From assembly GCA_964351225.1 (NCBI GenBank), contig CAYGNG010000005.1:12976-76975 (forward strand): a DNA stretch of 64,000 nt, read 5' to 3'. Origin of the DNA: an uncultured Gammaproteobacteria bacterium (GTDB lineage Bacteria; Pseudomonadota; Gammaproteobacteria; CAYGNG01). Shown piece by piece: positions 13,806 through 14,222 of this stretch (within the stretch, counting starts at the first letter, position 1; each line of letters starts with the position of its first letter). Made by a program: the position numbers and the translations under genes. Below the pieces are notes generated by a model, which saw nothing but the letters and a program-made list of their open reading frames with translations, did not search any database and had not been told where the DNA came from.

Positions 13806-13857
13806 ATAGAGCCTGTTTACCAATTGCTCTTTCGGCTGCAAATGTAAACAAGCCCTA
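13806..13857. repeat. Palindromic MITE/REP-like element, copy 1 (slightly degenerate), immediately 3' of rnpB
   Basis: tagagcctgtttaccaattgctctttcggctgcaaatgtaaacaagccctaa matches the ~51-bp family consensus TAGGGCCTGTTGACAATTGCTTTTTCGGCTGCAAATGTCAACAGGCCCTAA. Confidence 0.8.
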
Positions 13858-13883
13858 ATGGGTATCCTTACGCCTTGTACATA

Positions 13884-14222
13884 AGTGAGTTGGCCGATAA
13901 GCCGGGTTCTGTCGTGGGCAATCATTCATCTGGGACAAACGTCACCGTTTGCCTCGTGCGACCTACCCGGATCCGACGCGGGCCACGTTATAGATCCCTA
14001 TTCGGTCTTGCTCCAAGTGGGGTTTACCCTGCCACGACTGTTGCCAATCGCGCGGTGCGCTCTTACCGCACCATTTCACCCTTACCGTGTTACCGGCGGT
14101 ATATTTTCTGTGGCACTTTCCGTAGGTTTACACCTCCCAGGCGTTACCTGGCACTTTGCCCTATGGAGCCCGGACTTTCCTCCCCTTACCTAGATAAGAA
14201 GCGACTGCCTAGCCAACTCGAC
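13884..14222 (-). ncRNA. rnpB: RNase P RNA (bacterial type A) rnpB
   Basis: Minus-strand sequence contains the universally conserved stretches GGAAAGTCCGGGCTCCATAGGGCAAAGTGCCAGGTAACGCCTGGG (P4 region), …AAGGGTGAAATGGTGCGGTAAGAGCGCACC… and 3' …ACAGAACCCGGCTTATCGGCC…, colinear with E. coli M1 RNA; the + strand ORFs called here (13875-14312) are spurious. Confidence 0.9.

Follow-up and report, generated by a model that had tools for sequence, protein, structure and literature searches.

The 64-kb window, by which we mean the entire stretch of 64,000 nucleotides analysed here, carries on its minus strand the gene for class A RNase P RNA (rnpB), followed by a short palindromic element, an orphan ORF, and mraZ. 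In the order in which they would be transcribed, the features of this locus are as follows.

14227-14254, minus strand: sigma-70-like promoter candidate for rnpB (TTGATC-16-TACAAT), from a consensus scan, about 7 nt before the rnpB 5ˊ end
13882-14220, minus strand: rnpB, RNase P RNA class A, full-length match to Rfam RF00010
13858-13881, minus strand: linker of 24 nt from the rnpB 3ˊ end to the element
13807-13857, minus strand: copy 1 of the repeat family (MITE), 51 nt, TA at both ends, lying after rnpB and before a co-directional 163-aa ORF
13857-13843, 13842-13821 and 13820-13807, minus strand: 5ˊ arm, loop and 3ˊ arm of copy 1, in the rnpB sense
13278-13769, minus strand: orphan ORF163, 163 aa, co-directional, 37 nt downstream of copy 1
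13111-13140, minus strand: mraZ promoter candidate (TTGACA-18-TATAGT), 11/12 consensus match, conserved in contig L203
12596-13054, minus strand: mraZ (PF02381), first gene of the dcw cluster

The match of the RNA gene to RF00010 spans the full model (1-367) with 339.9 bits and an E value of 1e-110, the gathering score being 100. A sequence-only reading of this DNA had placed rnpB at 13884-14222 on the minus strand; the gene and its strand are borne out, with coordinates that shift by 2 nt. The same reading described a palindromic element within about 25 nt of the rnpB 3ˊ end, in agreement with the measured linker, and gave it a span of 13806-13857, of which the end at 13857 agrees and the start becomes 13807 when the terminal TA is included. 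In the RNA sense the linker reads ACUUAUGUACAAGGCGUAAGGAUACCCAU (the last rnpB bases included). It is A/U-rich, has no U run, and is single-stranded in the predicted fold.

The host genome has a GC content of 44.5% and is very poorly sampled, with the best MraZ match reaching 67% among GTDB species representatives and 75% among 5.8 billion proteins. Its MraZ shares 61-64% identity with the MraZ proteins of Legionella species, and Coxiellaceae or Legionellales are the labels of the nearest MAGs, from which we infer a placement of the host near these groups. The sole contig with an identical MraZ (Logan ERR3534985; L001/L082) starts 3 nt before the element, which indicates that the short-read assembly breaks at the repeat.

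Folding was the check proposed for the stability of the hairpin, and copy 1 does form a stable structure close behind rnpB, with 14 stem pairs and a predicted free energy of −20.0 to −21.1 kcal/mol in the rnpB sense (−12.5 to −13.1 kcal/mol antisense). The stem is rich in A/U and G·U pairs, with G-C pairs at 5 of 14 positions, and it encloses an internal region of 22 nt. A 131-nt region around copy 1 has a z-score of −3.3 and folds better than 200/200 shuffled sequences, and copy 1 is the sole strong hairpin in the 112-nt gap between rnpB and the next ORF.

This hairpin belongs to a family with six copies of 50-51 nt in the window (starting at about 13807, 17046, 40529, 45953, 48290 and 51247) and one solo end. 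The consensus of the element is TAGGGCCTGTTGACA-TTTGCAGCCGAAAAAGCAATT-GTCAACAGGCCCTA, with an asymmetric loop. The loop core TGCAGCCGAAAAAGCAA occurs at eight sites with no more than three mismatches, compared with 0.42 expected, and none of 100 shuffled sequences reached eight; the six sites with zero or one mismatch are all element copies. The rnpB match, the fold of copy 1, and loop-core matches far above chance together confirm the original observation of a repeated hairpin behind rnpB. The other members of the family in the window are listed here.

17046-17095, unstranded: MITE copy 2, between the convergent FakA/DegV-like gene and a 301-aa gene, giving the TAG stop at 17046
40529-40578, unstranded: MITE copy 3, between the convergent Gate/SpmB-like gene and tldD, giving the TAG stop at 40529
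45953-46002, unstranded: MITE copy 4, inside yhdP (42860-46720, minus strand), in frame, as residues 241-256
48290-48339, unstranded: MITE copy 5, between mreB and mreC, giving the mreB stop (48337-48339), with a degraded stem
51247-51296, unstranded: MITE copy 6, between gatA and gatB of the gatCAB cluster, giving the gatA stop TAA, with a degraded stem
31716-31733, plus strand: solo terminal inverted repeat TAGGTGCTGTTGACAATT with a TTGACA hexamer, just upstream of the ORF at 31747-32028

Copy 3 is the best-preserved hairpin (−26 to −30 kcal/mol), and the operon-internal copies 5 and 6 are the weakest (about −13 kcal/mol). The solo repeat directly precedes the AGGAG-N8-ATG of the 93-aa ORF at 31747-32028 and may be a donated −35 box. 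Other kinds of repeats are also present in the window, including 21-nt tandem repeats at 17349-17453, inside the 301-aa ORF beside copy 2, and CTT-rich repeats of 12 and 18 nt at 58913-59025, inside a 1002-aa ORF.

The origin of the family is revealed by its ends. The terminal inverted repeat TAGGGYCTGTTGACAWTT also bounds recurrent insertion sequences of about 860 bp in metagenomes, and the ends, (TA)GGGYCTGTTGACAWTT, are shared with full-length IS5-family sequences as well as with MITEs of many other length classes. When metagenomes were scanned with TTAGGGYCTGTTGACAWTT, the terminal repeat was located in at least 120 contigs from very diverse samples. Among the matches listed, paired inverted ends delimit 14 elements of 839-863 bp along with short classes of 37-313 bp, for which sizes of 146, 164, and 270 bp recur, and TA is present at both ends in 27/30 paired elements. 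In one gammaproteobacterial locus (L009), the stem motif occurs three times and bounds elements of 146 bp and 37 bp. The elements of about 860 bp encode a protein of about 250 aa, and one such product (L161:141-887) matches the IS5 family transposase model NF033580 with 275 bits (cutoff 110) as well as the Pfam families DDE_Tnp_1 and DUF4096. Neither a full-length parent insertion sequence within the 64-kb window nor the window's loop sequence in any of the other loci compared was found.

The window family thus has terminal repeats linked to a transposase and a TA target-site duplication, and it is small, non-coding, multi-copy, and dispersed. Because its repeats are shared with transposase-encoding elements and its copies are flanked by TA, the hairpin element is a very short IS5-family MITE. 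For the family, we infer that the TA is a duplicated target. The hairpin after rnpB is shown by these features to be a MITE copy that derives from an IS5-family insertion sequence of about 860 bp and that entered the rnpB-mraZ spacer at a TA, where the site before insertion would be expected to have read CCCAT-TA-TATTGATT.

Several other candidates were considered and rejected. The Coxiella elements QMITE1 and QMITE2, compared by description, differ in size and have direct repeats of 7-9 bp. An identity with REP/REPIN sequences mobilized by RAYT proteins does not fit the TA flanks, and the IS5-type terminal repeats mean that the element is not a REP in the RAYT sense. A 44-nt perfect palindrome located 24 nt past rnpB in locus L049 was evaluated as a parallel case; within L049 it does not recur as a dispersed repeat. 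With regard to a possible enrichment next to tRNA 3ˊ ends, an element lies within 100 nt at only 2/9 tRNAs in the 120 metagenome loci listed, a sample too small to be informative. In locus L197 (7096-7113), a solo terminal repeat of the family, with the same TTTACA variant as copy 1, follows a tRNA-Leu gene at a distance of 11 nt from its 3ˊ end.

Copy 4 records an insertion event. Its host gene is yhdP (PF13116 YhdP, 735 bits), in which the copy is an exact 48-nt insertion that adds 16 residues to the protein. Since these residues are absent from 47/47 YhdP homologues aligned after a HMMER search, copy 4 provides empty-site evidence for mobility. The net insertion of 48 nt corresponds to a 46-nt element plus a 2-nt TA duplication, and the reading frame is kept.

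The sequence-only reading had noted elements between two convergent gene pairs, DAK2-DegV/301-aa gene and spmB/tldD, and copies 2 and 3 are indeed found between the FakA/DegV-like and 301-aa genes and between the Gate/SpmB-like gene and tldD, respectively. In the window, four of the six copies contribute the stop codon to the gene that precedes them (FakA/DegV-like, Gate/SpmB-like, mreB, and gatA, respectively, for copies 2, 3, 5, and 6); the codon, TAG or TAA, consists of the duplicated TA and the element's first base. Stop donation is also seen in 8/39 family MITEs from other organisms, among the metagenome matches listed. An element that enters a TAA or TAG stop codon at its TA does no harm, because TA followed by the first G of the element again yields TAG, so that a stop is regenerated on either strand. 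TA targeting combined with this regeneration accounts for copies that lie exactly on gene ends, including those of convergent pairs.

The best-preserved copies occupy two of the five convergent junctions of the window. If the 48-nt net insertion is removed, the two gene pairs concerned are only about 6 and 12 nt apart. Two further convergent junctions are without a hairpin, one having a 19-nt gap and the other being an outright overlap. An unrelated GC-rich hairpin at 52772-52822 (about −38 kcal/mol) fills the gap between the convergent gatB and a 1205-aa gene. It has no U-tract on either strand, and it could be a U-tract-less terminator. An apparent convergent gap of 234 nt at 28242-28475 was rejected because it corresponds to an intact lptB gene.

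From the placement of the copies, the sequence-only reading had proposed that the hairpin now serves, by co-option, as a terminator of a Rho-independent-like or bidirectional kind. We assessed the terminator potential of each copy with the discriminant of d'Aubenton-Carafa/Lesnik. None of the 12 combinations of copy and strand has a U-tract after the element. The d-score is −38.9 for copy 1, and −39 or lower for all copies, compared with +22 for the terminator core of E. coli rnpB (MG1655). Copy 1 does present a stable stem-loop at the 3ˊ end of a transcription unit, but its stem is not short and GC-rich with a loop of 3-8 nt, and there is no U-rich tract (at least 5/8 U) directly 3ˊ of the stem. 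Its tail is UAUUGAUUAG, with UAUUGAUU following the full stem and UAUAUUGA following GGCUC, neither of which has a run of U, and the site is not called by a terminator scan. The tail T-score of copy 1 is nonetheless the highest of all combinations (2.09, with the others at 1.31 or lower).

The family context is also difficult to reconcile with a terminator. At three of the six sites efficient termination would be harmful, yet copies are tolerated there: one interrupts yhdP, and the other two separate mreB from mreC and gatA from gatB. These placements, the missing U-tracts, and the stop-codon placement leave terminator co-option unsupported as a property of the family. In other words, the stable hairpin near rnpB and the two convergent placements were recognized correctly, but co-option does not follow from placement that TA and stop-codon targeting already explain.

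Co-option nevertheless deserves consideration as a rival explanation. The hairpin might act as a U-tract-independent, possibly bidirectional terminator that ends rnpB transcription and shields ORF163 and mraZ from the activity of the strong rnpB promoter. Its stability, its A/U-rich tail, and its isolation in the gap are all consistent with such a role, as are the convergent locations of the best-preserved copies and the U-tract-less hairpin at another convergent junction. Indeed, the presence of the hairpin at 52772-52822 suggests that U-tract-independent termination may be normal in this organism, and the weakness of the hairpins inside operons is as expected if strong hairpins are polar. 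There is also a precedent in that MITE hairpins could form Rho-independent terminators, for which the pneumococcal SPRITE has been cited (review PMC10969869). Weighing against this proposal, in addition to the d-score and the copies within yhdP and the mreBC and gatAB pairs, are convergent genes that nearly abut without the insertion, convergent junctions that have no hairpin of any kind, and an ORF163 that would be insulated despite having no promoter of its own. On balance we regard it as possible, although rather unlikely.

Comparison with relatives bears on the same question. The arrangement of rnpB on the same strand and no more than 600 nt upstream of mraZ is found in 31/50 gammaproteobacterial loci that hold rnpB (L002-L081), with a median spacer of 354 nt and a usual range of 244-565 nt. 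The sequence-only reading had called for a comparison of rnpB terminators in relatives. A canonical terminator lies within 150 nt past rnpB in only 6 of the 50, which indicates that a classical rnpB terminator is not the norm in this group. For near relatives the comparison at rnpB rests on one 1.1-kb contig, L203 (Logan SRR14610198), whose MraZ is 75% identical. In this contig (1-400), the 3ˊ strand of rnpB P1 is followed at once by TTTTTTATTTAT, a U6 run, and the spacer of 228 nt contains neither a MITE nor ORF163. Compared with L203, the spacer of 827 nt in the window has lost the U run and gained about 600 nt; both sequences share the mraZ promoter TTGACA-18-TATAGT and GTGGG repeats. If the U6 run of L203 is considered ancestral, its loss in the window favours co-option, since a replacement stop signal after rnpB could have been useful.

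A second argument for a function in RNA concerns how copy 1 has changed. It is the most diverged of the six copies, yet all 14 stem pairs are intact in the rnpB-sense RNA. One G:C pair has become U:A through changes in both arms, and two transitions produce G·U pairs in the rnpB sense and A·C mismatches in the antisense, such that the stem is preserved in a strand-specific manner. Under a neutral simulation with independent substitution, retention of all pairs after four stem substitutions has a probability of about 0.4-2.3%; this value rises to 4-13% if the U:A pair of copy 1 was inherited. The stem-preservation argument is weakened by two facts: arm-matched variants are common in full-length insertion sequences, and the TTTACA variant is found also in L197. 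Matched arm variants in full-length insertion sequences reflect descent or transposase recognition, not RNA function.

Nor is the location of copy 1 surprising in itself. Given five intergenic copies and about 2.9 kb of intergenic DNA once the insertions are discounted (28 gaps of at least 20 nt, one of them coding), the chance that one falls in the gap downstream of rnpB is roughly 10-17%, and thus the co-location is not beyond chance.

Our preferred interpretation, to which we assign a probability of roughly 60%, is that copy 1 is an incidental MITE insertion after rnpB with at most a leaky effect on transcription. According to this model, the copy owes its position to a rnpB-mraZ spacer in which insertions are tolerated, and not to recruitment. 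On leaving rnpB, RNA polymerase would transcribe the element, producing an RNA in which a 14-bp hairpin (about −20 kcal/mol) precedes UAUAUUGAUU. Because this hairpin is followed by an A/U-rich tail that has no U-tract, it would be at most a leaky pause site or terminator, or a block to 3ˊ exonucleases. The mature 3ˊ end of RNase P RNA would presumably be generated by cleavage and trimming within the 24-nt linker, as in E. coli. Some read-through would reach ORF163, which has no recognizable promoter of its own, and mraZ would keep its own conserved promoter. Among the observations that count against an incidental insertion are the T-score of copy 1, the highest in the family, and the retention of all 14 pairs in the rnpB sense. 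For the rnpB copy, judged from its predicted fold and tail, a leaky terminator or 3ˊ protective role is possible.

Some of the same features could be explained if the hairpin acts only after transcription, in the manner of REP or Correia sequences, as a barrier to 3ˊ-to-5ˊ exonucleases or as an endonuclease site that does not stop RNA polymerase. Such an element would stabilize the RNase P RNA precursor until the linker is cleaved and would define the 5ˊ end of an ORF163 transcript. A 14-bp stem is short for RNase III, which counts against this explanation, as does the occurrence of the same element in many contexts with no common RNA need. We therefore consider it very unlikely, despite the preservation of the hairpin in the rnpB sense and the A/U-rich, single-stranded linker, and despite precedents in other systems. 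RNase E takes part in the maturation of E. coli M1 RNA (PMC11251521), RNase III cuts Correia-containing transcripts, and ERIC elements alter transcript levels (PMC10969869).

ORF163 raises the further prospect that the element contributes a promoter. No homologue of this ORF other than itself was found among 5.8 billion proteins and it has no Pfam or NCBIfam match; it is absent from L203 and other relatives, and its codon score of 0.113 is at the low end of the gene range (0.10-0.35). The consensus terminal repeat carries a perfect TTGACA that could serve as a −35 box driving ORF163, and the solo repeat at 31716-31733 is situated just 5ˊ of another ORF. In copy 1, however, this hexamer has decayed to TTTACA, there is no acceptable −10 sequence at a distance of 16-18 nt, and a promoter scan of the region between rnpB and ORF163 (13770-13881) reveals no promoter-like site. 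Promoter donation is accordingly an extremely improbable explanation for the element at this location.

At the other extreme, a stop-codon-seeking, IS5-derived MITE might be the main source of U-tract-independent bidirectional terminators or 3ˊ-end stabilizers in this Legionellales-like lineage, rnpB included, with selection keeping strong stems at the ends of transcription units and eroding them inside operons. This proposal starts from a near absence, at the gene ends of the window, of canonical terminators made up of a hairpin and a U-tract; nearly all canonical terminator-like matches are inside genes and thus at background level. We consider this combination of claims quite unlikely.

If co-option were true, a transposon-derived hairpin would terminate an essential stable RNA and would illustrate how mobile elements can remodel transcription-unit ends. 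What the evidence favours is more ordinary, namely a MITE insertion that has been tolerated. Two properties of the family are worth recording: the regeneration of stop codons (TA plus G yields TAG, at both ends) and the net size of 48 nt, which keeps reading frames open. Together these account for the placement of the family, which serves as a warning against inferring function from position alone.

The closest parallel to the arrangement at this locus is rnpB of E. coli, which also has a hairpin shortly past the mature end of RNase P RNA and repeated DNA after the gene. In MG1655, the hairpin CCCGC-TTCG-GCGGG begins about 17 nt past the mature rnpB end, and the 3ˊ flank repeats about 3.5 times. 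However, in E. coli a short, GC-rich hairpin precedes UUUUUGCUUUU and has a d-score of +22, whereas the corresponding structure in the window is a 51-nt MITE that has no U-tract and scores −38.9. Moreover, what is repeated in E. coli is the 3ˊ end of rnpB itself, in local tandem duplications, whereas the repeat in the window is a dispersed transposon.

The REP/BIME sequences of enterobacteria are palindromes of 35-50 nt at gene 3ˊ ends that form RNA hairpins, stabilize upstream mRNA, and attenuate transcription. The window element resembles them as a dispersed palindrome at gene 3ˊ ends that has no U-tract and gives RNA hairpins. REPs are mobilized by RAYT tyrosine transposases and are not known to have terminal inverted repeats or target duplications, in contrast to the IS5-type repeats and TA flanks of the element described here.

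Correia elements (CREE) of Neisseria, which are reported to duplicate a TA target, are likewise short MITEs with terminal inverted repeats that form hairpin RNAs beside or within transcription units. They are larger (about 100-155 bp), carry an IHF site, and are not known to have a parent insertion sequence, whereas the window element is 50 bp in length and an IS5-family parent has been found. Correia elements are reported to affect transcripts, with cleavage by RNase III (PMC10969869).

Three other families share particular aspects with the elements in the window. The terminator-like structure of the pneumococcal SPRITE repeat (PMC10969869) resembles the case at rnpB, although the SPRITE consensus has terminator-like features and the window family has no U-tract at any copy. 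The QMITE2 family of Coxiella burnetii, from a related gammaproteobacterial group, exists in full-size and very short REP-like forms and overlaps gene ends and small RNAs (PMC5896051); compared by description only, QMITE2 is about 190 bp in length with direct repeats of 7-9 bp, unlike the window element with its TA flanks and IS5-family parent. Finally, the Rickettsia palindromic elements (RPE) are palindromic MITEs that reside in frame in conserved protein genes (PMC10969869), as copy 4 does in YhdP. These elements are about 100-150 bp in length and mostly intragenic, whereas only one of the six copies in the window lies within a gene.
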